IMG/VR virus record: IMGVR_UViG_3300028800_000080
DNA: 64,000 nt
Source of the DNA: an uncultured virus (IMG/VR IMGVR_UViG_3300028800_000080)
Taxonomy: Duplodnaviria > Heunggongvirae > Uroviricota > Caudoviricetes
Reading direction: 5' to 3' (one strand)
Shown here: in pieces, positions 1,792 through 48,669 of the stretch
Layout of the letters: each line of letters starts with the position of its first letter
How positions within the stretch are numbered: position 1 is the first letter of the stretch
Notes under the pieces: generated by a model
Seen by the model: the letters and a program-made list of their open reading frames with translations, nothing else
The model's database searches: none
What the model was told of the DNA's origin: nothing
Translations under genes and position numbers: made by a program

Positions 1792-2375
1792 TAATTTTAG
1801 AAGGACCGGACTGTTCCGGCAAGACTACACTCGCACAGTTTCTGTGTGGGAAACTGAGCGCTCATTTCGAGCACATTGGTCTGCCCCCGCCTGGAGTAAG
1901 GCACTGGGACATCGTACGGGACAAGCTGTTAACTTGCCCCCTTAACACCGTCTACGACAGGATGATTGTCGGCAGCTACGTCTTTAAGCAGTTCAAGGCT
2001 GACAAGCACAACTTCAACGGCGTAACGGGGTCTGAGTTGACCTCTTGGCAAGAGCTGATGGAGGCGCTCTACCCGAAGGCGCTCATCATCGACTGTTTCG
2101 CACCGTATACGACGTTGCTCAGACGTTTCAAAGACAGGGGTGACGACTACGTCACAGAGAATGAGTTAGGTCTGAGTGCCCGGCACTATGACGATGTCTG
2201 GCTGCATTGGGCCGAGTTCAATAGCAACATCCTAATCTTCAATAGCGAAACGATGACCCTCGAAAGTTTCTACCGGGAGAACCTGAGCGCGATAGAGCTA
2301 GCTCTGTCGTCCACCGCAACGCCCAACGCAGCAATGCGGAACGTAATCAAAAATCACATGGGAGATATTAGTTGA
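1788..2375 (+). CDS. dNMP/thymidylate kinase-like P-loop kinase
   Basis: IILEGPDCSGKTT Walker A, VYDR motif and RGDDY lid; adjacent to a TS-family gene. Confidence 0.85.
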   Translation: MIILEGPDCSGKTTLAQFLCGKLSAHFEHIGLPPPGVRHWDIVRDKLLTCPLNTVYDRMIVGSYVFKQFKADKHNFNGVTGSELTSWQELMEALYPKALIIDCFAPYTTLLRRFKDRGDDYVTENELGLSARHYDDVWLHWAEFNSNILIFNSETMTLESFYRENLSAIELALSSTATPNAAMRNVIKNHMGDIS

Positions 2376-3316
2376 ACGTCAGAATAGACGCCGCCGACGC
2401 CGCAGAAGCGTACCAACAGCTGTTAGCTTCGCTGCTGCAAACAAACGTAGCTAGCGTGCCCGGTATCGCAGTTGAGCAGATTAACACTACCGTGTCTATC
2501 TGGCACCCGGAGCGCTTGCTGATAGGCTCCACGGCGCGCAAGTTCAACTACCGTTCGCAAATCAGCGAGGGGTTGTGGAACATGACGAATACGGATGCGA
2601 TTGACTTTCTCTGTCGCTACAACTCAACCATTCCGAGGTTCGTGGAAGACCAAGAACCGGCCCAAAGACACCGCGCTACGTGGGCGTACGGTCCCTACAT
2701 CCACAATCAGTTCCATCGCGTAGTTGATGAGTTGATTCAGGACCCCGACTCACGTCGTGCTCGCATCAGCATCCAGTATAGCGGAGAGAGGGGCACACCA
2801 CCGTGTCTCAGCTACCTCCAATGGTTCGTACGTGGAGGCAAGCTCATCCAGGTAACGCATATGCGTAGCAACGACGCATGGCGTGGCTTCCCTCTGGACA
2901 TCGTCCAGTTTGGGCTGATGGGTCACATCGTTGCTGCGGCACTGGGTGTACCGTTCTCGCTGCTCATCCACCAGGCCGACAGTATGCACATCTACATTCC
3001 TGACCTCGCACACGTGATGGAATTCATTGAGGGTCGACACACGCCTTACACGCTGCCCTACGTAGGGCCACATGCGCTGGGCACCGCTATTCGAGGCGAC
3101 GTGCTAGCGTTCGTGGAGAAATACGGGCACCGCGACCAAACTTGTCTCAAGGTGTGGAACCCCGAAGAAGGCGCTCACACGAGTCAAAAGTTGGATTACA
3201 GCCGGGTCCCGGGGCTGGAAAGTTACGCAGCCCTACTTACGGGCGACTACCTTAGCCCGAATTTTGAGGCCCCCTATGCTAATTTGAAGATGGGCGACTA
3301 CGGCATTGGCTGGTAG
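2372..3316 (+). CDS. Thymidylate synthase-family pyrimidine (hydroxy)methyltransferase
   Basis: AYG, DPDSRRA, catalytic PPC, MRSNDAWRGFPLD and SMHIY motifs. Confidence 0.85.
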   Translation: MNVRIDAADAAEAYQQLLASLLQTNVASVPGIAVEQINTTVSIWHPERLLIGSTARKFNYRSQISEGLWNMTNTDAIDFLCRYNSTIPRFVEDQEPAQRHRATWAYGPYIHNQFHRVVDELIQDPDSRRARISIQYSGERGTPPCLSYLQWFVRGGKLIQVTHMRSNDAWRGFPLDIVQFGLMGHIVAAALGVPFSLLIHQADSMHIYIPDLAHVMEFIEGRHTPYTLPYVGPHALGTAIRGDVLAFVEKYGHRDQTCLKVWNPEEGAHTSQKLDYSRVPGLESYAALLTGDYLSPNFEAPYANLKMGDYGIGW

Positions 3317-9416: not shown

Positions 9417-10388
9417 GTGGTTTCAGCGATGAACCAAGAACACTGGGAAGGCTTTTGGAGGTACGTCTATGAGCGGCAAGCGATTTGGCACAAAAGGTTC
9501 GTCCTCAAGCAAGACCCCCCTTGGACAGAGGACCCGGTACTCCAAGCGTATTCCTTCACTAACGCTTATCGAGAGCTTGACCGCGGCACTATTCATTGTC
9601 TGCGTCATGTTATCACCTCGCCTACCCGACCTAATCTTACGTATCCTGAGTTACTATGCCGGATAGTCGCCTACCGCTTCTTTAACCGCACCGAGGTATG
9701 GGACGAGTGTACAGGTCCGGTACTGGACAATCCTTTACGTGACTACAACGGTCGCTTAGCCAAGCATACGCTCGAACCTAGAATTAGAACCTACGCAGAC
9801 AGCGGGCGACCCGCCTTCACGGGTGCGTTTATGGTTGCCTCCTATTCCATGTTCCCGGGGCGCGACAAGATAGACCGCATATGCTACTTTATTGAGTGGG
9901 TGTTCGATAACTGTAACTACGCCTACCGTGAGCTGCTCAACTGTCAGAACCCCCGCGAAGCGCACAAGTACATCATGTCGTGGCCAGGTGTGGGCCCGTT
10001 CAATGCCTACGAGTTTCTGTCCGATATGTACTATGTTCCCGGCATGCTGCCCTGGACAGAGGATGACTGGGCGAATCCAGGCCCCGGTGCCAAGCGTGGC
10101 ATCAAGCTCATCTACCCGGAGCGCAAGGACTACGAACAATGCATCTACGACCTGCGTGACGCGCAATACGACAACTTGCCTGAGTGGCATGAAATAGCCC
10201 TCAGTCTAGGGTGCGAGGCAGTCACTGCAAGCTACCTAAACAACGCAGGTCGGCAAGAGTACCGAGCTGTGAGCTTAGGACCCAAACCGCTCACCATGCG
10301 CAACATCGAGCACAATTTATGCGAGTACAGCAAATACGCTCGCGGTCGTGCGCGAGTGAAATTCAAACCCAGGACTACGCCAGCGTGA
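9417..10388 (+). CDS. 5-hmdU DNA kinase helical domain (aGPT-Pplase1 family), DNA hypermodification enzyme
   Basis: ERQAIW..R....PPWTEDPVL..YSFTNAYRELDRGT, HhH-like GVGPFNAYE..SD, NPGPGA.RG and IEHNLCEYSKY; likely ATG at 9429. Confidence 0.8.
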   Translation: MVSAMNQEHWEGFWRYVYERQAIWHKRFVLKQDPPWTEDPVLQAYSFTNAYRELDRGTIHCLRHVITSPTRPNLTYPELLCRIVAYRFFNRTEVWDECTGPVLDNPLRDYNGRLAKHTLEPRIRTYADSGRPAFTGAFMVASYSMFPGRDKIDRICYFIEWVFDNCNYAYRELLNCQNPREAHKYIMSWPGVGPFNAYEFLSDMYYVPGMLPWTEDDWANPGPGAKRGIKLIYPERKDYEQCIYDLRDAQYDNLPEWHEIALSLGCEAVTASYLNNAGRQEYRAVSLGPKPLTMRNIEHNLCEYSKYARGRARVKFKPRTTPA

Positions 10389-13907: not shown

Positions 13908-14246
13908 TCATCCGCCAAACGCTGGTCCATCGTCATCAGGCTCTCCAACAGGAGGCGGGCGTGGGACGAGTGGGGGTAGTCCCGAGTCAACTCGCGGGCT
14001 GAGCGCAGGCAAGGCTGGAGGCTGTTCAAACTCCCAATCAGCAATGTGCGCTTCCGTAGCAGTCGGGTAAGAGCGGACTGGAAGAATTGTTTTACGTTGT
14101 CCATGTTTCCTGTAGTAGCAATCAATGTGATGTAGACGATACTCATTGTCCCTTACCTTCTCTACCAGGTACCAACAGCCACGGAGTATCGTAGTGTGAC
14201 AGTCGGTACATATGCGGCTATACCGCGCTCGCTTGGTTATCTGCAT
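13908..14246 (-). CDS. Hypothetical Zn-binding protein (alternative frame 13847..14146 possible)
   Basis: CTDC..HIDC pattern, starting from MQITK. Confidence 0.4.
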   Translation of the reverse strand: MQITKRARYSRICTDCHTTILRGCWYLVEKVRDNEYRLHHIDCYYRKHGQRKTILPVRSYPTATEAHIADWEFEQPPALPALSPRVDSGLPPLVPRPPPVGEPDDDGPAFGG

Positions 14247-14892
14247 ACTTGAGCGACTTGATGATTGAGCGCACAGTTGCTGGGTACCATTTCTGACCCC
14301 GGCAGGCTCTAGGGTAGCGCTCATTCAACAGGGCTGCAACAACAGCGTTGCTGTAGCCCGCTTCATGCCAGTCTTTGAGGTCCAGAATGGCTAACTGCTC
14401 ACCTTCGTCAGGTACGATAACGTCACCCACTCGCTGGTAGCCGTAGGGGATAGACCCGTACACATTGTTATTCTTGCGCTTGTAAGCTAGGGCATTCGTG
14501 GTGCGCTCCACCGTGACCTCGCGCTCCCATTGCGCTACCGTAGCCAGGATGTTGACCACGAGCCGTCCAGAGGCGGACTGCGTGTCCAGCGACTCTGATA
14601 CGGACACTATCTGATAGCCCTTCTCCAACATCAGACCTAGGTCCCGCACCGACCGAGTAAGACGGTCCAGCTTGAAGACCATAACAGTGTCTCCGGGGTT
14701 GAGAAGGGCAAGCATCTCGGTCATCCGTGGCCGGTCAAGGTTGCGTCCGCTGGCGTCCCGGTCGATGAACGTGCCGGTTATCTTGCGGTCGGTAGCCTCA
14801 GCGTAGGCGTTCACCCGGCGTATCTGGTCCTCCACGGACACGGACTTGTCGTGGTCCCGGCTGATGCGAGCGTAGGCGAAGGTGAGGGCCAT
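14218..14892 (-). CDS. Serine recombinase (resolvase/invertase family with short C-terminal recombinase segment)
   Basis: YARIS catalytic Ser, DRDASG..RP, KLDRLTRS and PYGY. Confidence 0.9.
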   Translation of the reverse strand: MALTFAYARISRDHDKSVSVEDQIRRVNAYAEATDRKITGTFIDRDASGRNLDRPRMTEMLALLNPGDTVMVFKLDRLTRSVRDLGLMLEKGYQIVSVSESLDTQSASGRLVVNILATVAQWEREVTVERTTNALAYKRKNNNVYGSIPYGYQRVGDVIVPDEGEQLAILDLKDWHEAGYSNAVVAALLNERYPRACRGQKWYPATVRSIIKSLKYADNQASAV

Positions 14893-15937: not shown

Positions 15938-16525
15938 TCACAGTATGCCTTGCTCCTTTGCAAAGATGAGTAGTTCCATGATGCTGATGGGCTGGTAGTG
16001 CCACACGTCTACGCCAACGTTGACGCAGCCGTCCTTGACCTTCCACAGGTCGTGCACGTGGCCGCACAGCGGCAGGTAGAGCAGCTCACCCTTCTCTATC
16101 AGGTCCCGGTAGAGAGGCAGAGTGGGCTGGCGGACGTAGCCCCGGCTATCCAGTTCATTGTTGACGGGGATATGGTTCATCTCCACGAGGACGTTCTTTG
16201 TGCCCTCTGCGTTGCGGGTGATGGTCGAGCACACGCGGTCATAGACCTCATGGAAACCCCGGTTGAGCATCTTAGCCACGTTCGGGTCATGGTTGCCCCG
16301 TACGAGGACCCGCTTACCGTTTAAGCGCTCTACGCAGCTGCGGGTGTACTCGGCACCCTTCATCGCTACATCGCCCAAGTGGTAGACGGTGTCGCCTGGC
16401 TCCACGATGGCGTTCCAGTGGGCAATCAGGGCCTCATCCATCTCCGCAACTGTCTCCCAAGGACGTTTGCAGTAGGGGATGATGTTGGCGTGACCGAAAT
16501 GGGTGTCGCTGGTGAAGTAAATCAT
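15938..16525 (-). CDS. Calcineurin-like metallophosphoesterase
   Basis: SDTHFGH, LGD, GNHD, HIP and GHVH motifs. Confidence 0.9.
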   Translation of the reverse strand: MIYFTSDTHFGHANIIPYCKRPWETVAEMDEALIAHWNAIVEPGDTVYHLGDVAMKGAEYTRSCVERLNGKRVLVRGNHDPNVAKMLNRGFHEVYDRVCSTITRNAEGTKNVLVEMNHIPVNNELDSRGYVRQPTLPLYRDLIEKGELLYLPLCGHVHDLWKVKDGCVNVGVDVWHYQPISIMELLIFAKEQGIL

Positions 16526-17900: not shown

Positions 17901-19946
17901 TTAGAGTGGCACGGTCCCACGAGCGACCACTTCAAAGCTTCCCGTGAGCGTCAGCCCACTAAGCCAAGTGAACACTGCGTTGTGCCAGGGATTCGTACCG
18001 TCCTCGTTCAGTCCCATGCGAATCGTGGGCGTGGACCCGGTATCAGCGATGACCGCACCGTACTTCTTCATCTGGTTGCAGACCAAGGTGACCTGCGCAT
18101 CTGCGTTCGCGCACGATACGCTGGACTTGATGCGCACGATGTCGCCCAGCTCCAAGCACTGCGTAGCACCGGAACAGCTGCCTCCACCGTTACCCAGTCC
18201 TGGGCTGTAGTTCACACCGTTGGTGCCCGAGAGCAACGCATTGGTGGTGATAATCATCTGCACAGGGTGGTTGATGGAGGTTAGGGTGCTATCGTAGCCG
18301 TAGTCCGTCGTGCCGAATCCACCGATGCCGGCCACGGACCAGTTGGTGCGCTTGTTGGCACGCTGATTATGGTACGTGTCGTAGAGGCAGTCGTAGAACC
18401 CGTTGTAGGCCACGAGCGTGCTAGGACTGGTCCAGTTCATGGCCCCGCCCTCTTCAACACAACCCGTGTCCGTGTTAAGGTTGACCACATGGCCATCGCC
18501 TGAGCAGCCCGTCGTGCAGGTGCCCTCAATCTTGGAAGACCCGCCAATCCAATGGAATTTCCAGTTGGCTCCGCCACCATAGAGGCCAGAGTCAACGGGC
18601 GGATTGTGGCCGCCGTTAAGACCCACAACAAACTGGGTTGTGGCGTTGGTGACGATGTTCACTATCTCAAGGCTGGCTGGGTTGCCGCTGCCGAACGTGA
18701 CCAGACCGCTAACGTGAGACATGATAGCCGCGTTGTTCGTGTCCACGCTGGCGCCGCTGATATCAGCGTTGATGATGGCGTCAGCCGAGCCAGGCGTACC
18801 GTACACTTGGAACGTCTTGCCGCCCGTTACATAGAGGTAGCGTGGGTCAGGCGTGGGGCTGGCCGACGGAGTAGGCGTGGGTGCTGAGGCGACGGGAGCA
18901 ATCAAATCCAGGACCTCAACCTGATGCGCGAAGCTATTGGTCGTAGTCATGGTCATGCTTGCCGTGTACGGGGACAGGCTCGCTAGGTTGCCATCCGTGT
19001 AGAGGCGCGTGGTGAAGTGGACATCGTTTGCCGTGGACACAATAGTACCCGGCGACAGCGACAGCACGGTCTGGCTGGAAGAGCCAGTATTCAGCATAGC
19101 AACCGGAAGGTCGCCCAGCACAGTCGGCGTCACAGCGTTCGTGGTGAACGGGCCTGCGCTACCGGTCAGCGTGGATAAGTTGAGGTTGTGGCCGTCAAAG
19201 GGATTGGTCTGGTTGACGTTCTTAACGTCCATCACAAAGGCTACACACGAGCCGTTGCCGATGGAGTCAGTGTAGTTGAAGCTTGTCCCATCTGAGCCGG
19301 TGCTGTACTTGTACCCTTCAATGAAGTGAAGGGAATTCGTTGTGTTGTTGTCCTCTGACGTGAAGCCAGCGGGCAGCGCTAGGTTGCCCGTCGTACTAGC
19401 CAAGCCGTAGAACAGAAGCAAGTCGCCTGCTGGCGCTTGGACTCCCAGAGCCGTAGTTGCGTTAGTCGTTGCACACGTACTGACACCCGCCACCGTACTA
19501 GCCTGATTCAGACCAGGCGTTGGGACAGGGGTAGGCGAAGCCGTTGGCGTGGGACTTGCGGTGGGGGACGGAGTTGGCGTGTTGAAAGCTATAGCAGAGA
19601 TAGGCGTAAAGTAGCCTAGCCGCAAACGCCCCAGATAGCGCGTCAGCTGAGTTGCCTCAATCTTAGCTGTAGACACGTCGTCAGCCGTGAAGGTGACAGC
19701 GTACGTTACAACGTAGTTGGGAGGCGTGCCGGCCACCGTTGTGACAACGTGGACCGGATAGGACAGCGTCAGGCCCGCTAAGCGACTCTGAATCTGAGTA
19801 GCGTGAATTTGCGCGGAGGTGGCATCTGCCGCAGAAAACTGCACCTGATATTGCGCCGTGTAGAGGACGGGGGTGCTGGCCATTGCTTGTGGCGCGAACG
19901 ATAGTGCAAGCGCTAGCACTAAGGCGCTAATAAAAGGTAGTCTCAT
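17901..19946 (-). CDS. Secreted multidomain protein with signal peptide and Pro/Thr linkers
   Basis: MRLPFISALVLALALSFAPQAMA signal-like N-terminus; TPTPSPTASPTP linkers; beta-rich domains with Cys pairs. Confidence 0.75.
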   Translation of the reverse strand: MRLPFISALVLALALSFAPQAMASTPVLYTAQYQVQFSAADATSAQIHATQIQSRLAGLTLSYPVHVVTTVAGTPPNYVVTYAVTFTADDVSTAKIEATQLTRYLGRLRLGYFTPISAIAFNTPTPSPTASPTPTASPTPVPTPGLNQASTVAGVSTCATTNATTALGVQAPAGDLLLFYGLASTTGNLALPAGFTSEDNNTTNSLHFIEGYKYSTGSDGTSFNYTDSIGNGSCVAFVMDVKNVNQTNPFDGHNLNLSTLTGSAGPFTTNAVTPTVLGDLPVAMLNTGSSSQTVLSLSPGTIVSTANDVHFTTRLYTDGNLASLSPYTASMTMTTTNSFAHQVEVLDLIAPVASAPTPTPSASPTPDPRYLYVTGGKTFQVYGTPGSADAIINADISGASVDTNNAAIMSHVSGLVTFGSGNPASLEIVNIVTNATTQFVVGLNGGHNPPVDSGLYGGGANWKFHWIGGSSKIEGTCTTGCSGDGHVVNLNTDTGCVEEGGAMNWTSPSTLVAYNGFYDCLYDTYHNQRANKRTNWSVAGIGGFGTTDYGYDSTLTSINHPVQMIITTNALLSGTNGVNYSPGLGNGGGSCSGATQCLELGDIVRIKSSVSCANADAQVTLVCNQMKKYGAVIADTGSTPTIRMGLNEDGTNPWHNAVFTWLSGLTLTGSFEVVARGTVPL

Positions 19947-19966: not shown

Positions 19967-20842
19967 CTAGGCTGCTCCCCTGCGCGAATCACCCGTCCAG
20001 CCTAGCGGCATGCGGAATCCAGAGGCGTGCTTGTGGCCGCCTCCACCGTAAATCTTGGCCACCTCGGCAACATCAGCGCCGTCCTGTGACGAGCGTAGGC
20101 TGAACCTGCGCCATTCATCGTCATCGTAGTAGGTAGCAGCGAACCCTTCACCTCGTGCCAACTGGTTGCCGATTTCAGAGCATAGCGTGATGGGCGCGTT
20201 GACGACCGGCACACGCTGACCACCGATAACCATAGTAGTTCGAGCACATCTGATAATAGCGTCAATGTCTTGTTGCTGCTTTCTGAGGATGGCGCTGCCC
20301 TCGGCGTACCAGAACCCTTTGCCCTTGAGCTTGAGGTCCTTTGTGAGATACTTATCCATCAGGTTCCAGCGCTCATGCGTGGGCTCGTAGGACATAATCA
20401 CAGCGTTGATTTCACGACTGTCCTGAAGCTTGAAGCGCCACAGGTCCCGGTCCTCAACGTACGCAACCAGGGGTGGGCGGGCCACTCCCGGGTGGTACCA
20501 GTCCCAGGCAAGACCAGCACCGCTACGATTCATGTCAAACTGGATTGTGCAGCCAGCGTATCCAACCAAGGGTTCCAACGCTTGTTGAGCCGACTGGTGG
20601 TGGTCCAGAACCAGAGTATGCGCAGCCTTGTCGATGATTTGCTTCATCACTTCCAGAGGGAAGCTGAAATCCACTAACACCACCTGTGTTTGGCTGTCTA
20701 TCAGGTCCAGTGGTGGCTTGTCCCCATAGTTGATGGGGTGATAGGTTACCTGCTCAGGCAACAGGTCCAGTGCCTTCTTGGCTACCCAAGCAGCCGTGAA
20801 CCCATCAAAGCATGGGCTGTGGTACATTACAACTGTGTTCAT
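19967..20842 (-). CDS. DHH/DHHA1 family phosphoesterase
   Basis: YH..C.DG, VDFS, LDHH, DRDLW, SLRS and GGGGHKHASG. Confidence 0.9.
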   Translation of the reverse strand: MNTVVMYHSPCFDGFTAAWVAKKALDLLPEQVTYHPINYGDKPPLDLIDSQTQVVLVDFSFPLEVMKQIIDKAAHTLVLDHHQSAQQALEPLVGYAGCTIQFDMNRSGAGLAWDWYHPGVARPPLVAYVEDRDLWRFKLQDSREINAVIMSYEPTHERWNLMDKYLTKDLKLKGKGFWYAEGSAILRKQQQDIDAIIRCARTTMVIGGQRVPVVNAPITLCSEIGNQLARGEGFAATYYDDDEWRRFSLRSSQDGADVAEVAKIYGGGGHKHASGFRMPLGWTGDSRRGAA

Positions 20843-22682: not shown

Positions 22683-22786
22683 TGCGTGAAAGAATCTTGC
22701 GCTACGACAGATTCCCACACGAAATCGAACGTACGTTCTGTGCGGTGGAATTTGGTTCACCAAGCGCTGTGGGAATGTAGGGGGGG

Positions 22787-22815
22787 TTGTTTTCCGTCAC
22801 CGCATCGGCTATGAT
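22787..22815 (+). promoter_or_regulatory. Promoter TTGTTT-N17-TATGAT
   Basis: Divergent partner of the 22651 promoter, with a similar ATCGGC-TAT context. Confidence 0.55.
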
Positions 22816-23366
22816 TGTCGGTAACTCTCACGCTTGAAAGGAGTTGGATTCTGATGGTTGCTAAGATGTTACTGGTCGCCTGGTGCGTCGTTGTTGGGTT
22901 GGCTATCTACACGGTGGACGTACGAGTGATGGCGCGCATTCATGCGCAAGACCGCTGGCTCAACCCGAACGCACAGGGTGACGACTCTGCGTGTACGCTG
23001 GCGCGGACTTGTTGAAGCTTCTGTGCCAGGCTTGTGGGCAGACCTGTGCGCACTTTTGTGGTGTGTGCGGCTGCTCTGTCCACAGTGCTAGCAGTTGCTC
23101 CGAGAAACGTAAGCAGTCAAGTGGGCGAGATGCGCACTATTTGGTGTGTGCATCGTGCGTGGTTGCTGGGCACTGAGCCTGGGCTACTCAGCTAAAGGTG
23201 AGTGCTCAAGGCCCGCCTGTCACAAGAAACGAGTGCCGGATGGTAGGAAGAAATGCGCCTACCATCTACGTTTGGACGTAGAGTACCGACGTTTGCAACG
23301 TGAAGGCGGATTGTGCTCGCATTGCTACGATAGACGTGGACCAGGCGAGCATCGCTCGTGGTGTCG

Positions 23367-23457
23367 CACCAGAACCAGTCACCAGAACCAGTCACCAGAA
23401 CCAGTCACCAGAACCAGTCACCAGAACCAGTCACCAGAACCAGTCACCAGAACCAGC
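23367..23457 (+). repeat. Tandem array, 7 x 13 bp CACCAGAACCAGT (last copy ends in C)
   Basis: Read directly; no spacers. Confidence 0.95.
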
Positions 23458-23667
23458 CCCTAAATCACACTAACAAGCGTCCGCCCGAGGGGTCGCTTGG
23501 TTGACGAGGGCGTGGGTGGGCGACCGCTCGCTCTCGAAAGGACGAAGTGGGTGGGCGGTCGCCTCGTTTTTCGGTCGGCGGCTCGGAGAGGCGCGAAGCG
23601 CTCCGCGAACCGGAACCCCCCGATTCTCTCGCGAATCGGCTCGGAAGGGAAGCGGGAGTTTCTCCTT

Positions 23668-23871
23668 TCGAACGGACGTTCGAGCGTGGCGGACGAAGCG
23701 TTTTTCGGTCGTGTGGGAAATGCCCTTCTTTTGACCGGAAACGGCCCTTCCTTCGCTTCCGGTCCGACCTCCCACCCTCTCTCCCAAAATCGTTTTTTCG
23801 ACCGATTCCCACACGAAAGCGAACGGACGTTCGCGTTTCCGCGCTTGGTGAATCTCGCGAACGGACGTTCG
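23668..23871. promoter_or_regulatory. Three CGAAC-GGAC-GTTCG palindromes (23669-82, 23820-33, 23858-71), LexA/SOS-box-like
   Basis: Identical copies matching GAAC-N4-GTTC; a fourth variant lies at 22726-22739. Confidence 0.6.
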
Positions 23872-23915
23872 CTGGAAAAGAATTCGAAAAGGAGGAAAAA
23901 AACCTCTCTCTCCTC

Positions 23916-23944
23916 TCGACTTTTCGGCTCGGAAAGCGGATAAT
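23916..23944 (+). promoter_or_regulatory. Island promoter TCGACT-N17-GATAAT with upstream A-tracts
   Basis: Exact 17-bp spacer; the -10 holds one of very few TA steps in the island; 46 bp upstream of the first ATG. Confidence 0.7.
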
Positions 23945-23990
23945 CGGAGAAGGACCGGAATCCTTCCGGCCCCTCTCGAAAGGACTCGAA

Positions 23991-24314
23991 ATGACTGACG
24001 AAATGACCGTCGAAACGGCCCTCGCGAACCTTCGTTCCGCCTCGCGAAACTTCGCGCTCGACTCCGAAAACCTCGAACGATTTGAAGAGGTCGCTTTCCG
24101 TCGCCTCCTCTCCTCGCTCGGAAAAGACGTTTGGAACGAGGAGCGCGGAGCGAAAGCGAAGCGAAACGTCGCGATTCTCGTTCTTCGCGAGGCGATTCGC
24201 TCGCTCGAATCCGCCGTCGCCCTCGAAACGGTGACGGAAAACTTCTCTCTGGACGGGTCGCTCCTCCGTAATTTCGGACTCGTCCCCCCCTCTTTCGGGG
24301 AGGACTCGAAATGA
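23991..24314 (+). CDS. Island gene A, 107-aa hypothetical (no H/Q/Y)
   Basis: GAAAGGACTCGAA-ATG RBS; TGA stop overlaps the next ATG. Confidence 0.8.
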   Translation: MTDEMTVETALANLRSASRNFALDSENLERFEEVAFRRLLSSLGKDVWNEERGAKAKRNVAILVLREAIRSLESAVALETVTENFSLDGSLLRNFGLVPPSFGEDSK

Positions 24315-25048
24315 CTCTCGGAAACCCGGTTCTCGACTCCGTTTTCTCGCGCTCGGCGGGTCGCGAAACTTTCTCCTCCGTTTTCGCCCGCGAATTTGGC
24401 TCCCCGGTCGGACTCGACTCGGACGGACCGGACCTCGCTCGGACGTTCGCTCGGGCCTCTCGCGCTTTCCTCGAAGCTTTCCCGGACGTTGACCTCTTGG
24501 AATTCTCGATGGAAACCGGAATTTCGCTCGACCCCGACGCTTGGTTCGAGTCCTCCGCGACTCGCGAAACCCCGTTCGGAATTTCGACCGGCTCCTTCGT
24601 TTGCCCCGCGAATCCGTGCGGGGCCGGTCCCCGCTCCGACCGCTGGGACGAAGCGGAATTCCGGGAGTCGGTCGAAAATGACCTCGCCTTCCTCCTCCTC
24701 GCTCTCGCGGAGAAGAGAAAATCCGCTCGACTCGACGGCGCTTCGAAATCGCGCTTCGAAATGATGAAGGAAATCGAAGCGAATTTCGAGGCGGGAAAAA
24801 AGCGAGTGGATGACCTCTTCTTCGCTTCGCTCCTCGCGACCCGCGAAGCGCTCGCTTCGGCTCTCTCGGACCTCCCCGGACCGTCCGACCCCTCGCTCGC
24901 TCTCCCCCCGTTCTCGACGGTCGAAAAACTTCTCCGCTCGGTCGAAAACGTCGTGGACGCGGTGGACCTCCCGGAAATCGCTCGGACGCGCCTCTCGCTC
25001 CTCCGCTCGCTCGTTCTTGACCTTTCGGCCCGGGGGAAGCTTTCGTGA
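24311..25048 (+). CDS. Island gene B, 245-aa hypothetical (no H/Q/Y)
   Basis: GGAGGACTCGAA-ATG; ATGA coupling; globular-looking composition. Confidence 0.8.
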   Translation: MTLGNPVLDSVFSRSAGRETFSSVFAREFGSPVGLDSDGPDLARTFARASRAFLEAFPDVDLLEFSMETGISLDPDAWFESSATRETPFGISTGSFVCPANPCGAGPRSDRWDEAEFRESVENDLAFLLLALAEKRKSARLDGASKSRFEMMKEIEANFEAGKKRVDDLFFASLLATREALASALSDLPGPSDPSLALPPFSTVEKLLRSVENVVDAVDLPEIARTRLSLLRSLVLDLSARGKLS

Positions 25049-25191
25049 CCGCCTCCGACCTCGCTCGCTCGTTCGAGGAGCGCTCCGCGCTCCTCCCCCC
25101 CGTCCTTCTCGCCTTCCGTGCCCGGGGCGTCCGTCGCTCGAAAGCGACCCGTCGCCTCTCCTCCCTTCTCTCTCGAAAGGACTCGAAATGA
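25045..25191 (+). CDS. Island gene C, 48-aa basic peptide (no H/Q/Y)
   Basis: GTGA/ATGA coupling at both ends; MTASDLARSFEERSALLPPVLLAFRARGVRRSKATRRLSSLLSRKDSK. Confidence 0.55.
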   Translation: MTASDLARSFEERSALLPPVLLAFRARGVRRSKATRRLSSLLSRKDSK

Positions 25192-25847
25192 CTCTCTCCG
25201 ACGCTCTCGCGAACCTCCGTTCCTTCGCCTTCGAGGCGGCTCGCCTCTCGGACGCCCCCGCCCCCGTTCTCGCTTCGGTCGAAGGCGAGGGGTCGCTCGC
25301 GGAACGGGTCGCTCGCTTCCTCTTCGTCGCGAATTCGGACGAAGGCCCGGAACCGTTCGCCTTCTCGTGTGGCGGCGATGGCGGGTGGGGCTCGTTCTTC
25401 TCGGCGGTCGGCGTCGTTTCGGGGCTGACCCCGGACGGCGAGGACCCCGCTTCGGCGGGCGACGAACCGCCCTTCGCTCCCCTCGTCTTTCTCGACGGCT
25501 CGGCGCTCGCTCCGACCTCCGAGGAAGCGGACGGAACGCTGGTTGTCCTTCGCGGACCGGCTTCGACTCTCGCGGAGCGAGCGATTCTCGCTCGGGAAAT
25601 GGGCTCCGAGGAGGATTTCTTCGACCGAGTGGGCTGTTTCTCGGCTCCCGGTTTCGAGGAGAACGACGAGCGAGCGCTCCCGACCCTTTTCGAGGACGGC
25701 TCCGTTCTCGCGGACCTCGGAGAAATGTGTGGGCGAGAGGGCGCTTGGTTGACTCTCTCGGCTTGGTTCCTCGGAGAGGAGGCGACCTTCGCGGAAGCGA
25801 CGGACGACCGGGGGACCTCCCTTCTCTCTCGAAAGGACTCGAAATGA
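25188..25847 (+). CDS. Island gene D, 219-aa acidic hypothetical (no H/Q/Y)
   Basis: GAAAGGACTCGAA-ATG; N-terminal ALANLRS shared with gene A. Confidence 0.8.
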   Translation: MTLSDALANLRSFAFEAARLSDAPAPVLASVEGEGSLAERVARFLFVANSDEGPEPFAFSCGGDGGWGSFFSAVGVVSGLTPDGEDPASAGDEPPFAPLVFLDGSALAPTSEEADGTLVVLRGPASTLAERAILAREMGSEEDFFDRVGCFSAPGFEENDERALPTLFEDGSVLADLGEMCGREGAWLTLSAWFLGEEATFAEATDDRGTSLLSRKDSK

Positions 25848-26788
25848 CTGATTCGACTTTCCGCGCTCGAATCGAGGGCTCTCTCGCTCTCGCCTTCGCG
25901 AAGGCGAACCCGAATGACCGTCGCGAACGTCGCGAATTCCCGGACGGCTCCGCGCTCTCGCCTCGCGGAATTCGAGGCGAAGCTTTCTCCGTTTGGATGA
26001 ACGGCTGGTTGGACTTCGGCTCGGTGACCGAGGAGGAAATCCTCGGCTCGGAGGCGGCTCTCGCCGTCCTCTCGGGCTCTCTCGGGCTCTCGGACGGACT
26101 CCGCTCGACCTCGTTCCCGGACGGCTCCTCCGCTCGACGGAACGATGACGGCTCGGCGCTCGTTTGGCTGCCTGGCCTCCTCGGGGGGAAGCGCTTCGAC
26201 GCGGCTTTCGCTCCGCTTCCGACCCCTCGCTTGACCCCTCGAAGCGAGTGGGCGACCGCTTCCGACCTCCCCGAGTGGGAGAGAGAGCTTCGACGGAGCG
26301 CTCGGAACCGGGCGGCTCTTTTGACGGCGGCTCGGGCTCGCTTCGAACGTCTCCCGAATGGCGACGTTCGCGCTTCGGTCCCGGGAGAGTCGCGGACTTT
26401 CTCCTGGGAAAAAGAGGATTTTGTCGGACGCGGCTCTCGCTCGGGAACCGGACCCGCGCTCTCGGCGGTTCTCGATTCGGTCGCCTTCGCTTGGTCGCGT
26501 GGCGCGTGGGGAATCGGGCTCGTGGTTGGCGACGGACCGGGAGTCGCGCTCGAAACGTCCGCCTCGATTCCCGGTCGCTCGGATTGGTTGAACCTCTCGA
26601 TTGCTCGCTCGGCGAACGGAACCTGGTCGCTTGTCGGAGAGCGCGAGGCGGCGGAACGCTTCGGCGTCTGGACGGACGATGGCTTCCTTCCCGCCGACCC
26701 GTCGCTCGTTCTCTCGGTCGCGGACGCGGAGAGGCGCGACGAAATCGAAGCGGAGAATGGGAGGCGGATTCGCGAAGCGCTCGGCTGA
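25844..26788 (+). CDS. Island gene E, 314-aa hypothetical (no H/Q/Y)
   Basis: GAAAGGACTCGAA-ATG; Trp-rich; internal FPDGS repeats. Confidence 0.8.
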   Translation: MTDSTFRARIEGSLALAFAKANPNDRRERREFPDGSALSPRGIRGEAFSVWMNGWLDFGSVTEEEILGSEAALAVLSGSLGLSDGLRSTSFPDGSSARRNDDGSALVWLPGLLGGKRFDAAFAPLPTPRLTPRSEWATASDLPEWERELRRSARNRAALLTAARARFERLPNGDVRASVPGESRTFSWEKEDFVGRGSRSGTGPALSAVLDSVAFAWSRGAWGIGLVVGDGPGVALETSASIPGRSDWLNLSIARSANGTWSLVGEREAAERFGVWTDDGFLPADPSLVLSVADAERRDEIEAENGRRIREALG

Positions 26789-26807
26789 CTTGGTTGGGGG
26801 GTCCGGG

Positions 26808-26845
26808 AGAGGGGTCGCGCTTCGGTGCGGCTCCTCTTTTCTTTT
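26808..26845 (+). terminator. Intrinsic terminator of the island operon
   Basis: AGAGGGGTCGCGC-TTCG-GTGCGGCTCCTCT followed by TTTCTTTT. Confidence 0.85.
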
Positions 26846-26952
26846 GACCGTCGGAGCGCCTCCGGGCGCTTCGCGCGTCGTTGATGGGGGAAAGAGTCGG
26901 GGGCGGCTCCGAACGCGCTGAGAAGAGGCTCGGAGGCCCGGGAAATGGTAGC

Positions 26953-27330
26953 GAGGGGAAAGTTGAGGGGGAAAGTTTCCCCGCTCGGAAAGGACTCGGG
27001 TGTTCTTTCTTCGCTCGGTCGTGTGGGAACGGGGTCGCGAAAAGAGAACCGAGGTCGCTTCCGGGGAGAACGGGGAGAACGGGGAGTGATTCTCGGGCTC
27101 GGGCTCGCTCTCTTAGAGAGGAGAGAAGCTTTTTTCGGAAAACCGCTTGGTTGGTAACGAAAGAAGCGAGCGAGAGGGGTCGCGAGGCGAGAGGAACCCG
27201 AGAATAACTCCCCGTTCTCCCCGTTCTCCCCGGAAGCGACCCTGGTCTCTTTCTTCGTGTGGGAGGGTGAGGAGAAAGGACCGTCCGGTTCTTTCCGAAG
27301 CGGGGAAAGTTTCCCCTTGACTTTCCCCTC
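26953..27330. repeat. Large imperfect inverted repeat (~380 bp)
   Basis: Outer arms from 26953 and to 27330; inner arms 27041-27097 and 27197-27252 contain tandem GGGGAGAAC / GTTCTCCCC units. Confidence 0.9.
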
Positions 27331-27702
27331 CCCCGTGGGAGAGAGCGAGCGAGTGGGCTGGTTGCCCGGCTGATGGGGTGGGTGGGTGAATAGAGAAGGG
27401 GCCGGTTGGTAGTGGGTGGTAGGTCCCCACCGTGTGAACATGCTATAGTCACTACGCGTAGTTTCGCCTGCGGCATCAACCCAGCAACTGCGCACACACG
27501 CCCAAGGCACGTTTCAGCTGCGCGCCGAAGCTAATAGAGGAGACAATGGACGACGACGCGCAGTTCTGGTTTGAGGCGCATCACTTCAGGGATATGCCCT
27601 TCAGGGCTATTCCTGAAGAACATAAACAAGCAGTTATTGAACTGCTTGTGGATTTGTTCCTACGCGGGAGTGGTTTACTCGTTAACGGGGAATAATTAGA
27701 AT

Positions 27703-30764: not shown

Positions 30765-31007
30765 ATGGACATCCTCGTCTGGCTCAGTTGGATAGGAAAC
30801 CCCCTTGCGTTGCTTGGCTCCTATATGATAGGCGGCGGCAACCTCAAAGGCTGGTGGGCCTATCTCGCAGCGGACTTTTGCCTCATCGGGCTACCTATCC
30901 AGCACCGTCTCTGGTCGCTGGCGGTGTTGTTCACTCTGTTCATTGCGACAGGTCTACGCGGCCTCTACAAGTCAGGACAGTTGAAGTGGCCAAGCTTTAC
31001 ATCTTAA
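30765..31007 (+). CDS. Small membrane protein, PnuC-like half-transporter
   Basis: Three hydrophobic helices with W..G..LALLG.Y....N.KGW.....D and GLY. Confidence 0.5.
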   Translation: MDILVWLSWIGNPLALLGSYMIGGGNLKGWWAYLAADFCLIGLPIQHRLWSLAVLFTLFIATGLRGLYKSGQLKWPSFTS

Positions 31008-31444
31008 GAGGCGCACCCGGCTCAGGCAAGAGCACTTTTGCCCATCACCTGTTGAATGCGGGCCTAGCAGACAAGCACTTTGAAGCCGACCTGTGGTTCT
31101 ACGGTAAGAACGGCTACAAGTGGGACCCCGCATTACTGCAGGACGCCCACTACTGGTGCTTCCTCAGCACGCACGCGGCCTTGCGCGGCGGCTACAATGT
31201 TGTTGTAGCCAATTGCTTTGCGCGACGCATGCAAATACAGGATTACGTAGACCTCGGTTACGAAACTGAAGTGATTGAGCTGAGGGGCAAACACCCTAAC
31301 GTTCATGGTGTCCCGCCCCAGAAAGTCGAACACATTCGTCGTATCATGGAGGAGTGGCCCGGTGAGCAAAGCGTCAATAGAGGTAAAAGGTCAAAAGTAC
31401 ATAGTCCCGGTTATGCGGGGCCTGAGTATTCGCAAGTTAGCTAA
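30986..31444 (+). CDS. P-loop kinase (AAA_33 / polynucleotide kinase-like)
   Basis: LYILRGAPGSGKST, EADLWF, DAH.WC and NVHGVP. Confidence 0.8.
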   Translation: MAKLYILRGAPGSGKSTFAHHLLNAGLADKHFEADLWFYGKNGYKWDPALLQDAHYWCFLSTHAALRGGYNVVVANCFARRMQIQDYVDLGYETEVIELRGKHPNVHGVPPQKVEHIRRIMEEWPGEQSVNRGKRSKVHSPGYAGPEYSQVS

Positions 31445-35323: not shown

Positions 35324-36472
35324 TTGAGCACACTCGCGGTAAAAGTTGAGCGCATTCGTGACATTCAACCCCACGGTAACGCAGACCGGCTTGAGATTGC
35401 CACCGTATTAGGATGGCAGTGTGTCGTGCAGAAGGGTGCCTTTAAGAAGGGCGACCTTTGCGTCTATTTCCCCATCGACAGCATTCTCCCGCAGACGGTT
35501 GAGGACGCCATCTTTGGCGCAGACTCCAAAATCAAACTGGCCAAGCATCGCATCCGCGCCATCAAGCTTCGTGGGGCTATTAGCCAGGGATTGGCGACCG
35601 AGCCTAAGACGCTGATTGGGCTGGGCGCGGGCATCATCAACGCTAAAGAAGGTACGGACCTAACTGCGGTGCTAGGCGTCACCAAGTACGAGCCACCCCC
35701 GCCGCGTACGCAGGGCATGTCTAACCTGCAAAAGTCGTGGCGCAAGAAGAACCCGCACTTTCACGAGTACACGGACATCGAAAACGCCAAAAACTACCCC
35801 GACACCTTTGCGCCAGGTGAGCGTGTGCTCGTATCGGAGAAGGTCCATGGCACGAATTTCCGTGCCGGTTGGGTGCCCTACGAGCCAGATAACCTCTGGA
35901 AGAAGTTACTCACTTGGCTGCATCTCGCGCCTAAGTACGAGTTTGTCTTCGGCAGTCGCAAGGTTCAGTTACAAGACCCCGGTCGGGTAGCGGGTACTGG
36001 CTTCTACGAACGTCAAGCGAATGGCGAAGGCCCCCCACCGGGTAACGTGTACGCTGAAGCGGTGCGCAAGTACAACCTTCGCAAGATTCCGCTGGGCTAC
36101 GTTGTGTATGGTGAGATTTACGGGTCCGGCATTCAGAAGGGCTACACTTACGGGTGTAAGCAGGGCGAGCATAAGGTTGCTTTCTTCGACCTGATGATTA
36201 ATGGCCAGTACCAGGATGACTACGAGTTTCGCCGGTGGGCCACGATTGTGGGGCTACCCGTTGTACCGCAGTTGTGGTCAGGTAAGTACGAGTCGCTGGA
36301 CCAGATGAAGGCGCTTACGGTGGGCGACAGCGTGCTGTGCCACGAGCAACCCTGTATGGAAGGCGTCGTAGTGAAGCCTGAGCACGAGCGCTGGGACCCG
36401 TCCTTAGGCCGCGTCATTCTCAAGGTCGTCAGTGACCAGTATTTGCTGGGCGACCAGAGCGAATTCCACTGA
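35324..36472 (+). CDS. RNA ligase (Rnl2/DRB0094-like) with N-terminal OB-type domain
   Basis: H.NADRLE, LRGAISQG, motif I SEKVHGTN, YGEIYG, FFD and EGVVVK. Confidence 0.88.
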   Translation: MSTLAVKVERIRDIQPHGNADRLEIATVLGWQCVVQKGAFKKGDLCVYFPIDSILPQTVEDAIFGADSKIKLAKHRIRAIKLRGAISQGLATEPKTLIGLGAGIINAKEGTDLTAVLGVTKYEPPPPRTQGMSNLQKSWRKKNPHFHEYTDIENAKNYPDTFAPGERVLVSEKVHGTNFRAGWVPYEPDNLWKKLLTWLHLAPKYEFVFGSRKVQLQDPGRVAGTGFYERQANGEGPPPGNVYAEAVRKYNLRKIPLGYVVYGEIYGSGIQKGYTYGCKQGEHKVAFFDLMINGQYQDDYEFRRWATIVGLPVVPQLWSGKYESLDQMKALTVGDSVLCHEQPCMEGVVVKPEHERWDPSLGRVILKVVSDQYLLGDQSEFH

Positions 36473-48015: not shown

Positions 48016-48329
48016 CGGATGAGGAATATGATACGCGGAGAGATGAGCTTCACAAGATTCAGCGGGACGCCGTGCTCGAAGCCGAGGCCCAGTATCAAGC
48101 AGACCTTCTCACCGACCCCGAAGGATGGGAACGTGTCGCCGGTCTCAACGGACCTGCTCGCGGGGGCGAACCCGGCAACGTAGGGGACCGCCTAATATCT
48201 TACATGTTTAAGTGGCGCGACGTAGACGCACTTAATCGCCTGAATCGTAGTCTAGCTACGATTGCACAGAGGATTTCAAAGTTAGCAACGGAGTTGGATG
48301 ATGAGTATTACAGCAGTCGTGGCGGATGA
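47994..48329 (+). CDS. Hypothetical protein
   Basis: ORF tiling. Confidence 0.5.
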   Translation: MRIAVHLTDEEYDTRRDELHKIQRDAVLEAEAQYQADLLTDPEGWERVAGLNGPARGGEPGNVGDRLISYMFKWRDVDALNRLNRSLATIAQRISKLATELDDEYYSSRGG

Positions 48330-48669
48330 TTCCGACCCCGAGTTACAGCAAATCATACCCATCCTTAAACGGATAGGCGTGACGGTGCTAGCCTCATTTC
48401 GTGACGGACTCTCCGCTTGGAAGTATATCCAGAGCCTGGAGACACCGCCTGATTTGCTCGTGACTGATTATGTGATGCCTCACATGTCAGGCGCGGAATT
48501 AGCTACCCACGTCAAGAATGCAAGATTAGCGACTAGAGTTCTCATGTGGTCCTCAGCGGGGCAGAAGGGTGCGGCTTATGGCGACCCTGACTCCATCCAT
48601 TGCGTGAGGATTAAGCCCTATTTACGACGTGAGACAGAGTCAGCCTTGAGGGAGCTAGGATTCAAGTAG
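48298..48669 (+). CDS. Stand-alone response-regulator receiver (CheY-like) domain
   Basis: VVADD, PDLLVTDYVMPHMSG, WSS and IKPY. Confidence 0.85.
   Translation: MMSITAVVADDSDPELQQIIPILKRIGVTVLASFRDGLSAWKYIQSLETPPDLLVTDYVMPHMSGAELATHVKNARLATRVLMWSSAGQKGAAYGDPDSIHCVRIKPYLRRETESALRELGFK

Follow-up and report, generated by a model that had tools for sequence, protein, structure and literature searches.

A phage module with a one-stranded CA/TA ban and five genes free of His, Gln and Tyr

Why should five adjacent phage genes encode no histidine, glutamine or tyrosine? The question is posed by a locus in a 64,000-nucleotide stretch from an uncultured tailed phage of soil (hereafter the window), which represents 64 kb of a ~73-kb genome; the longest contig carrying these proteins measures 73,613 bp. 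According to the original prediction, the translations of genes A to E (23991-26788) contain none of the three residues, keep Trp, Met and Cys, and all end at TGA. This proved correct: H, Q and Y are absent from all 933 residues (107 + 245 + 48 + 219 + 314), W, M and C occur 17, 11 and 5 times, respectively, and TGA is the stop codon of all five genes. In contrast, the 15,048 aa of 49 further ORFs in the window are 9.8% H+Q+Y, with no ORF below 4%, and the stop codons outside A-E comprise 21 TAA, 15 TGA and 13 TAG. The probability of 933 residues without H, Q or Y by chance is ~1e-42. The genes are:

23991..24314, top strand: gene A, 107 aa, pI 4.9
24311..25048, top strand: gene B, 245 aa, pI 4.7
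25045..25191, top strand: gene C, 48 aa, GTG start, pI 11.9
25188..25847, top strand: gene D, 219 aa, pI 4.05, the most polymorphic of the five
25844..26788, top strand: gene E, 314 aa, pI 5.1

The restricted alphabet reflects a restriction on nucleotides. A-E make no use of any of the 18 codons with CA or TA in them. Of the two dinucleotides, CA is missing from the operon altogether and TA nearly so, with a single cross-codon instance left in gene A (CGT|AAT, 24269). Since non-coding DNA, cross-codon junctions and the NCA and NTA codons comply as well, the 17-amino-acid set is a by-product of a ban at the level of nucleic acid, as had been proposed, and the same observations reject a tRNA-level cause that would spare tRNA-His, -Gln and -Tyr. 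No tRNA genes were found in the window.

Several features suggest that A-E are genuine genes for fast-evolving orphan proteins, joined in one operon by translational coupling. Stop and start codons overlap at every junction, as ATGA at A/B, C/D and D/E and as GTGA at B/C, and ribosome-binding sites accompany them: A, D and E have AAGGA in their leaders, 7 nt ahead of the ATG, and GAGGA precedes B. The leader core GGACTCGAAATGAC is identical before A, B, D and E, with exactly four occurrences against 0.02 expected. In-frame TGA is absent from A-E against 25 off-frame occurrences ((2/3)^25, ~4e-5), and G+C is lowest at the second codon position in all five genes (GC2 0.43-0.59, against GC1 0.64-0.70 and GC3 0.69-0.78). 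The gene B cassette is cleanly missing (24309-25038) from two sister contigs, L016 and L017; where it is absent, gene A takes a 108-aa form, and gene C is joined by GTGA to A instead of B.

The ban itself is broader than the operon, taking in regulatory DNA, a terminator-like hairpin and a hairpin of ~380 nt. On the top strand CA is absent for 3,615 nt (23813-27427), where 178 would be expected, and TA occurs 9 times against 116 expected. Between 23472 and 27390 there are six TA (23941, 24269, 26949, 27114, 27155 and 27205). The next-longest CA-free gaps of the window are 299 nt (23474-23773, the upstream part of the same island) and then 126 nt. Non-coding DNA upstream has 4 CA against 29 expected and 1 TA against 21; downstream, CA is 0 against 25, and the CA ban runs on for ~580 nt beyond the terminator-like hairpin.

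The ban is strand-asymmetric. Against the complete loss of CA (0 of 178 expected), the same strand retains 111 TG of 239 expected; the avoided word is thus absent from one strand only, whereas avoidance of palindromic restriction sites would remove it from both. One-strandedness likewise rules out a property of the duplex step, such as the flexibility of CA:TG and TA, as the cause. No other partial CA/TG asymmetry was found in the window. TG is nevertheless depleted on the top strand, with observed/expected ratios of 0.43 in the genes, 0.43 upstream and 0.62 downstream. Within A-E there are 24 cross-codon T|G against 61 expected, the share of CTG among Leu codons is 3.6% (elsewhere 30%) and that of GTG among Val codons 15% (elsewhere 35%), and NCG codons are raised. 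The most enriched dinucleotide of the island is TC, on both strands (TC 1.76, GA 1.94). Antisense ORFs of 1,345 aa arise solely because neither stops nor ATG, GTG or TTG can occur on the bottom strand, and a coding role for them was rejected.

The module, self-contained between 23475 and 27427, and its immediate borders carry these further features:

23354..23470, no strand assigned: left border, tandem array of seven copies of a 13-bp unit (CACCAGAACCAGT), repeat family D1
23475..23772, top strand: upstream part of the island, with zero CA and zero TA in a sequence scan
23531-23549, top strand: leader-like CTCTCGAAAGGAC-GAAGTG, within the upstream part
23669-23682: copy of the CGAACGGACGTTCG palindrome, within the upstream part
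23707-23720, bottom strand: CCCACACGA motif, within the upstream part
23799..23834, top strand: 36-nt regulatory element CGACCGATTCCCACACGAAAGCGAACGGACGTTCGC, a near copy of 22705-22740
23858..23871, no strand assigned: 14-bp near-palindrome CGAACGGACGTTCG, third copy, a putative operator (13 matches against 2.6 expected)
23916..23944, top strand: predicted sigma-70-like promoter candidate, TCGACT-17-GATAAT, agreeing with the consensus at 9 of 12 positions
26805..26848, top strand: terminator-like hairpin (26805-26840) with a U-rich tail; the predicted fold has a 16-bp G+C-rich stem and a UUCG loop
26953..27330, top strand: long imperfect hairpin of nested inverted repeats I1 and I2, from repeat search and fold
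27331..27427, top strand: right end of the CA-free run, rich in G and TG and closed by the next CA at 27428
27441-27449: extended -10-like TGCTATAGT, right of the island and ahead of rightward genes

Two of the island's four CA (23810 and 23812) lie within the 36-nt element and the other two (23773 and 23785) 14-26 nt upstream of it, and the CA-free run begins at the CACACG core of that element. The GATAAT hexamer of the promoter candidate is the sole TA between 23472 and 24268. The centre of the CGAACGGACGTTCG palindrome is TA in the copy outside the island (22726) and GA in the island copies. After the last gene, the G+C-rich hairpin followed by a U tract has the make-up of a putative rho-independent terminator. 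The long hairpin beyond it has arms of 53 nt (92% complementary) and 58 nt (72%); a 661-nt fold of its region reaches -378.6 kcal/mol (z = -12.6). It contains no CA, and a potential pair is interrupted at the very position where pairing would require one. An Rfam search gave a chance-level match only. The 13-bp array at the left border is dense in CA when read on the top strand, and in TG on the bottom one, and is probably non-coding, because locus L017 has one unit fewer.

Variation within the population respects the ban. None of 20 island SNPs creates a new CA or TA (P ~0.01 given the SNP types), and all 31 distinct protein variants lack H, Q and Y. Differences at 24619, 24632 and 24667 were excluded from the SNP counts because the short contigs that show them have unrelated loose ends and probably derive from other organisms, and a change at 23803, seen in run X10 alone and 5 nt from a contig end, was not scored as a new CA. 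Purifying selection, on which the original prediction had in part staked its case, gave a divided answer. At the protein level none was detected: the 17 coding SNPs comprise 6 synonymous and 11 non-synonymous changes, a pN/pS of ~0.9 that is indistinguishable from neutral at this sample size. Yet the frames stay open, indels at the locus are restricted to non-coding DNA, and the N-terminal domain of D (121 aa) is conserved blockwise, at 64% identity, in a diverged relative, P0011. This 238-aa protein, encoded on a 1,666-bp contig, also lacks H, Q and Y, its unrelated C-terminal half included, which is evidence at the protein level only.

No protein family had been recognised in A-E, and searches of Pfam, PHROGs and NCBIfam gave no meaningful match for any of the five (none for D at E <= 1, 1 and 0.01, respectively). 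Word-indexed protein searches with D returned near-identical relatives and P0011 only, and a D+P0011 profile added none; for E the only relatives were 99-100% identical. An exhaustive HMMER search of 1.84 billion representatives with B returned B itself and one 40-residue low-complexity match (E = 7e-5) in a 1,102-aa protein that has H, Q and Y. The ESM Atlas held no usable match for E or for a 680-aa neighbour, and the AlphaFold models were unusable (pLDDT 35.2 for D from a single sequence, 36.6 for E from 8 near-identical rows). At the nucleotide level, megablast and blastn of the island and of its left flank found no match among 50,697 phage records. Viral contigs searched for the leader, E, the kinase and the D profile yielded none, nor did genome contigs searched with the D profile. 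The nearest record, G001, does not cover the island, and its extra 6.5 kb contains none.

What, then, might read T before a purine on one strand? The phage probably hypermodifies thymidine, because it encodes a 5-hmdU DNA kinase and an amino acid:DNA transferase; these and two associated genes are:

9417..10388, top strand: 5-hmdU DNA kinase (PF18723, E = 3.4e-53, 181 bits), with <30% identity to known phage homologs
37089..37940, top strand: amino acid:DNA transferase (AADT / aGPT-Pplase; PF18724, E = 9.3e-9, 35.8 bits against a cut-off of 26.2)
2372..3316, top strand: thymidylate-synthase homolog and candidate dUMP hydroxymethylase (PF00303, E = 4e-16; PHROG 160), two activities that sequence alone cannot separate
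1788-2375: dNMP-kinase-like gene adjoining the thymidylate-synthase homolog

The same enzyme families, 5-HMUDK and AADT, serve hypermodification in phages M6, ViI and phiW-14. According to Flodman et al. 2019 (PMC6449724), restriction-site resistance in these phages points to TG/TC modification contexts, and the M6 kinase acts on TG. O'Toole et al. 2026 (PMC13229309) report for T-dioxygenases a preference for NTC or for NTG>NTA, the latter being that of the phage enzyme 5mYOX176/ParB. T before G or A, the step banned here, coincides with the NTR preference reported for 5mYOX176/ParB and with the TG activity reported for the M6 kinase. Bulky major-groove groups block bacterial RNAP in vitro (PMC4838386), and with T7 RNAP template-strand effects differ from non-template-strand ones (PMC11550810).

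The reading we favour, with a probability of about 0.4, is that the template strand has been purged of the adduct-receiving T-purine context, so that an early operon stays transcribable. The bulky modification would proceed by way of 5-hmdU, then DNA kinase, then amino-acid transfer. The module would have been cleared of 5'-T-purine-3' fully on the bottom strand, the template of the operon, and about two-fold on the top strand; the top strand would be without CA, and almost without TA, because the bottom strand was purged of T-purine. If the modification context is indeed T-purine, no adducts would sit on the template of the module, and the operon could serve as an immediate-early unit, transcribed by the unmodified host RNA polymerase as soon as virion DNA enters; doing without His, Gln and Tyr would be the cost. 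Here we infer the modification context, the effect on transcription, the early timing and the roles of the proteins. The strand that lacks T-purine does match the template strand of all five genes, and the ban is kept in the SNPs, the 31 protein variants, P0011 and the TA-to-GA difference at the palindrome centre. Bolder, and held only tentatively, is the proposal of a sequence-encoded epigenetic 'window': word choice alone would keep the adducts that armour the rest of the virion DNA off the strand that host RNA polymerase has to read first, and working orphan proteins of 17 amino acids would go on to render the modified genome usable or to disarm the host. Several roles had been suggested for A-E, demodification of the rest of the genome among them. 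The thymidine-hypermodification pathway of this phage lends indirect support to a part in expression from a modified genome. A part in host takeover or in counter-defence is a guess that draws on the orphan status of the genes, their polymorphism and the gain and loss of a cassette.

Some observations run against the template-strand reading. PaMx11, a known 5-HMUDK/AADT phage that was scanned whole, has no island (longest CA-free gap 141 nt, TG-free 125 nt), and none lies near the helicase gene at 14 loci of distant helicase relatives. The unit 3' of the sister 36-nt element (22741-23470) has an ordinary CA/TA content. The CA ban persists well past the terminator-like hairpin, and the rest of the genome still needs transcription, with a sigma-70-like extended -10 just right of the island. 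Protein-level purifying selection went undetected in the coding SNPs. Finally, TC is enriched although it is an inferred context in M6, ViI and phiW-14, so the model would need a kinase confined to T-purine.

The main rival to the template-strand reading, which we consider unlikely, moves the ban to the RNA: a transcript free of CpA and UpA would escape a pyrimidine-A-specific endoribonuclease, from host defence, a toxin or phage shut-off, that cuts other mRNAs. YpA bonds are the RNA steps most prone to nuclease and hydrolysis, toxins of the MazF (ACA) and PemK (UAH) types require CA or UA, and engineered ACA-less mRNAs evade MazF. The banned strand is equally the mRNA-sense strand of all five genes, and genes for an RNA ligase (35324-36472), a kinase and a phosphoesterase (30788-31444, 15938-16525) suggest pressure from RNA-cutting defences on this phage. 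However, this rival leaves unexplained why TG is reduced two-fold on that strand even at synonymous sites and across codon boundaries; such a reduction at free sites of the coding strand points to T-purine on DNA and is not predicted by a YA ban acting on mRNA only. The ban moreover reaches putative operators and promoter DNA that lie before the probable transcript start, and it persists for 580 nt beyond the terminator-like hairpin. One UA remains within gene A (24269), and an RNase was not recognised in the window.

Less probable still is that the module evades some other strand-specific reader of a short T-purine word in DNA, be it a nickase, a restriction or translocating enzyme, or a primase. 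DnaG-type primases begin at CTG or CTA, and chlorovirus nickases recognise words of 2-3 nt. The strict one-strand asymmetry and the CA-dense array placed directly at the left border would fit such an enzyme, but no candidate was found by Pfam among the 79 window ORFs, A-E included, nuclease protection of 4 kb out of ~73 kb brings no obvious benefit, and the proposal is purely inferential.

Could the composition instead be a historical scar, left by foreign or hypermutated DNA, for example by context-dependent A-to-G editing of YA? The island has a G+C content of 60-65% against 55% in the rest of the window (1-kb bins reach 67%) and an excess of CG (observed/expected 1.45-1.55); pN/pS is near neutral, and homologs beyond the phage population are lacking except for P0011. 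We nevertheless judge this non-adaptive origin improbable. The frames are intact and coupled, with four leaders sharing an identical core; present polymorphisms preserve the ban; the unrelated C-terminal half of P0011 is devoid of H, Q and Y too; the regulatory element and a -10-like hexamer are just the places where CA and TA have survived; and the centre of the putative operator is altered in a way that avoids TA.

It is highly improbable that A-E are untranslated frames, open because only TGA can stop in CA/TA-free DNA, within a module acting as DNA or RNA only: very low AlphaFold confidence, the pN/pS and a B variant (P0024) with a divergent C-terminal stretch of ~45 aa would agree with this, but not the four exact SD-spacer-ATG leaders, the ATGA/GTGA coupling that survives in the B-less form, the off-frame placing of TGA, the G+C minimum at codon position 2 or the blockwise conservation of the D N-terminal domain.

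Known systems resemble the phage module in part. The papers on M6, ViI and phiW-14 and on the T-dioxygenases deal with the placement of marks, whereas here a region appears to be written around them, with TC enriched and a putative context; in the accessible literature on phage thymidine hypermodification we found no description of a genome region written to avoid a modification context. Vertebrate RNA viruses suppress CpG (against ZAP) and UpA (against RNase L), and thus likewise give up a two-letter word, at a codon cost, to escape its reader. Their suppression is genome-wide, partial and at the RNA level, whereas the phage ban is absolute (for CA), spans 4 kb, affects one strand of a DNA phage and removes three amino acids. 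In the single-protein-production system, ACA-less mRNAs escape MazF and stay translatable while other mRNAs are destroyed; there too coding sequences are rewritten without a short RNase word, and ACA contains CA. That system is engineered, synonymous only and limited to one trinucleotide, whereas the phage ban is natural, extends to non-coding DNA, is complete for CA and nearly so for TA, and is accompanied by TG depletion. Restriction avoidance concerns words of 4-8 bp, mostly palindromic and hence strand-symmetric. Together with the first-entering early regions of T7 and T5, it resembles this locus in that avoidance is concentrated in a small module, putatively early in the present case, whose proteins are orphan, acidic and often directed against defence. 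In this locus the avoided word is a dinucleotide, banned on one strand.

If the template-strand reading is true, DNA sequence alone would reveal the hypermodification site (T before purine), the unmarked strand and the unmarked genes, and scanning the genomes of uncultured phages could predict both their modification contexts and their immediate-early genes. A further consequence would be that bulky thymidine adducts hinder transcription in vivo in a strand-specific manner. The responsible reader of the YA/TR step would be a kinase, an RNase or a nickase. Whatever the mechanism, A-E are a natural set of five proteins and 933 residues without His, Gln and Tyr, maintained across the population and in a diverged relative, and as such relevant to reduced-alphabet protein design.

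The acidic product of gene D had been put forward as a DNA mimic. Judged by charge only (40 D+E against 14 K+R), it could be one of the Ocr or ArdA type, although acidity is a weak criterion, with A, B and E acidic too. The N-terminus of gene A has an ALANLRS motif in common with D.

The five genes A to E, which form a top-strand operon (23991-26788), encode proteins of 107, 245, 48, 219 and 314 amino acids. As the original prediction had it, not one of these 933 residues is His, Gln or Tyr, while Trp (17), Met (11) and Cys (5) are retained and every stop is TGA. Among 49 other ORFs of the window, the three missing residues make up 9.8% of 15,048 amino acids and at least 4% of each ORF, and stops outside the operon are TAA (21), TGA (15) and TAG (13). 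The proposal that the cause lies at the nucleic-acid level also held: every codon containing CA or TA is unused, and codon junctions comply as well, except for a single TA at 24269.

The ban reaches beyond the operon, an aspect absent from the original prediction, and defines an island at 23475-27427. CA is missing from the top strand throughout 23813-27427, compared with a longest CA-free gap of 126 nt outside the island, and TA occurs only six times in 23472-27390. In the 516 nt upstream there are 4 CA versus 29 expected and 1 TA versus 21; in the 639 nt downstream, the corresponding figures are 0 versus 25 and 7 versus 23. The ban is also one-stranded, which had not been stated. The top strand keeps 111 TG, the complement of CA; the bottom strand, the operon's template, is thus free of TG and nearly free of TA, so that its T never precedes a purine. 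TG is nevertheless under-used on the top strand, with an observed/expected ratio of 0.43 both in the genes and upstream of them, and of 0.62 downstream. T|G steps across codon boundaries number 24 versus 61 expected, CTG accounts for 3.6% of Leu codons versus 30% elsewhere and GTG for 15% of Val codons versus 35%, and GCG, TCG and CCG codons are raised. Given the bottom-strand absence together with this under-use, the banned step is best described as 5'-T-purine-3', absolute on the bottom strand and reduced about two-fold on the top strand.

The island and its borders carry several candidate regulatory and structural features.

Features of the island and its borders
23354-23470: left border, seven 13-bp units (CACCAGAACCAGT) in tandem, very CA-dense on the top strand
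23916-23944: promoter-like TCGACT-17-GATAAT, holding the only TA for 800 nt
26805-26848: terminator-like hairpin after gene E
26953-27330: imperfect hairpin of 380 nt, after the terminator-like hairpin
27375-27425: tract of G runs (GGGGTGGGTGGGTG...GGGG...GGGTGG) at the CA-free run's right-hand end
27441-27449: extended -10-like TGCTATAGT, directly right of the island

Two copies of a 36-nt element (CGACNGATTCCCACACGAAANCGAACGNACGTTC) share one orientation: the copy at 22705-22740 precedes a small ORF for a membrane peptide (about 22855-23015), and that at 23799-23834 precedes the operon. Three bottom-strand sites (23707, 27017 and 27253) repeat its core CCCACACGA. The element may be a promoter or operator specific to the phage. 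The island has four CA in total: two lie inside this element (23810 and 23812) and two 14-26 nt upstream of it (23773 and 23785). The near-palindrome CGAACGGACGTTCG is present in three exact copies upstream of the operon, with TA at the centre of the copy outside the island and GA in the inside copies. The 13-bp array, which may represent iterons or a loading site, differs in copy number among contigs, and L017, a metagenome locus carrying a variant island, lacks one unit; an ORF called across the array (23146-23463) is doubtful, 13 not being divisible by 3. Downstream of the operon, a 661-nt fold reaches -378.6 kcal/mol (z = -12.6), and inspection of the long hairpin shows a pair lost in one arm at the very position where CA would be required. 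The G-run tract could form a top-strand G-quadruplex. TGCTATAGT has a single exact copy in the window, about 100 nt upstream of the first rightward gene (27546).

The phage encodes a 5-hmdU DNA kinase (PF18723, E = 3e-53) and an amino acid:DNA transferase (PF18724, E = 9e-9), and the window also holds a thymidylate-synthase homolog and a dNMP-kinase-like gene. Two papers describe the same gene set for post-replicative thymidine hypermodification (PMC8989533, PMC5889632). Flodman et al. infer that modification in M6, ViI and phiW-14 falls on TG/TC, and state that the M6 kinase modifies TG (PMC6449724); O'Toole et al. report phage T-dioxygenases that favour NTC/YTY, or NTG and then NTA (PMC13229309). 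Bulky groups in the major groove are reported to stop bacterial RNA polymerases in vitro (PMC4838386), and with T7 RNAP the effects on the template strand are not the same as those on the non-template strand (PMC11550810). We infer, with a probability of roughly 0.4, that the simplest account is an adduct-free template: word choice would exclude the phage's own bulky adducts from the template strand of the module, and because this strand could not receive them, the module would remain readable on incoming DNA. Such an account would explain which strand is banned, why the module spans 4 kb, about the size of a transcription unit, why both strands avoid TG, and why CA and TA survive only in regulatory motifs. 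What keeps it tentative is that the modified context is itself a prediction for this phage, that TC is enriched in the island rather than avoided, that PaMx11, a known 5-HMUDK/AADT phage scanned whole, has no comparable island, that the unit behind the sister 36-nt element has ordinary composition, and that the CA ban continues 580 nt beyond the terminator-like hairpin.

A more doubtful possibility is that YA-free mRNA evades an endoribonuclease, which would agree with the strand that is banned and with the RNA-repair genes of the phage but explains neither the avoidance of TG nor a ban on apparently untranscribed DNA. That a different reader of one DNA strand, such as a nickase or primase, imposed the ban is less likely again, as the window ORFs yielded no candidate enzyme.

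Variation within the population bears on whether the ban is maintained. None of 31 distinct population variants of A-E contains H, Q or Y. We collected 23 single-base differences from L017, a second variant locus, L016, and four runs. Not one of the 20 within 23813-27427 results in a new CA or TA (chance about 0.01 given the mutation types, with only six informative). The differences concentrate in genes, with seven in D of L016 and none in 2.1 kb of flanks, and indels are confined to non-coding DNA. The expectation of purifying selection on the frames was borne out only in part: the frames stay intact, but 6 synonymous and 11 non-synonymous changes (pN/pS about 0.9) do not depart from neutrality. 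Thus, the pattern of substitutions, variants and indels points to fast protein evolution with frames and word ban kept. A mutational scar is a very unlikely source of the island's composition, given a maintained ban and frames that are intact and coupled.

The anatomy of the operon points to translated genes. The core GGACTCGAAATGAC stands ahead of A, B, D and E and occurs exactly four times versus 0.02 expected, with AAGGA 7 nt upstream of ATG in the A, D and E leaders and GAGGA in B. Every gene junction overlaps (ATGA or GTGA), the leader sequence doubles as coding for the C-terminal ...RKDSK common to C and D, and TGA occurs 0 times in frame versus 25 times off frame. These leaders and frame statistics speak against non-coding ORFs, which we regard as the least credible reading of all.

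Gene B is precisely missing (24309-25038) from L016 and L017, both 99.3-99.7% identical; there, A terminates in ...GKDSLS and is GTGA-coupled to C, and this 108-aa form of A is on record from additional contigs too. The junctions of this presence/absence polymorphism fall at the repeated leader and are clean, with the frame preserved (near position 526 in L016 and 1473 in L017). One variant of B (P0024, 246 aa) differs completely over some 45 C-terminal residues, perhaps through a compensated frameshift.

No family had been recognised for these proteins, and A-E indeed have no match in Pfam, PHROGs or NCBIfam. Relatives of E are 99-100% identical only, and an exhaustive protein search gave none for B. 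For D, a single diverged relative was found, P0011 (238 aa); identity is 64% across the first 121 residues, and from there on P0011 is unrelated to D or to the remaining island proteins; this entire protein also lacks H, Q and Y, with a chance of about 2e-11 at the usual frequencies of the phage. AlphaFold models of D and E were both unusable. By analogy, the orphan status, acidity, cassette gain and loss, and polymorphism of A-E would be typical of early host-takeover or counter-defence genes.

Searches of the freely accessible literature turned up no report of a phage region from which a dinucleotide has been removed so as to evade the phage's own modification, and none of a natural operon lacking H, Q and Y. 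The island can be classed with a known phenomenon, word avoidance to escape a sequence-context reader; distinctive here are the one-strand strictness, the T-purine ban and the span of a whole five-gene operon.

The window represents a contractile-tailed phage, with genes for sheath, baseplate, tape measure and terminase, that also encodes a family-A DNA polymerase, a DnaG/D5-type primase-helicase, RNR and an RNA ligase. It originates from rhizosphere metagenomes: 12 of the 20 runs listed contain half or more of the words sampled from the island, all 12 coded as rhizosphere and none as RNA. A collection of 50,697 phage records contained no DNA-level relative. The island lies between a leftward replication block extending to 22602 and rightward genes from 27546, and G+C between these blocks is 60-65% (1-kb bins up to 67%) versus 55% elsewhere in the window. 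A 681-aa ORF on the bottom strand (17901-19946), between a DHH phosphoesterase gene and an intergenic gap, had no match in PHROGs, Pfam, NCBIfam, PDB sequences or the ESM Atlas. That phosphoesterase gene (19967-20842), together with the genes for the RNA ligase (35324-36472), an AAA_33 kinase-like protein (30788-31444) and a metallophosphoesterase (15938-16525), could make up a set for RNA repair or nucleotide salvage. Unusually for a phage, the structural gene block includes a gene (48298-48669) for a protein with a response-regulator receiver domain (PF00072, E = 7e-11), and a bottom-strand serine recombinase (14218-14892; Resolvase domain, E = 2e-32) in this otherwise lytic-looking genome could be an invertase or integrase.
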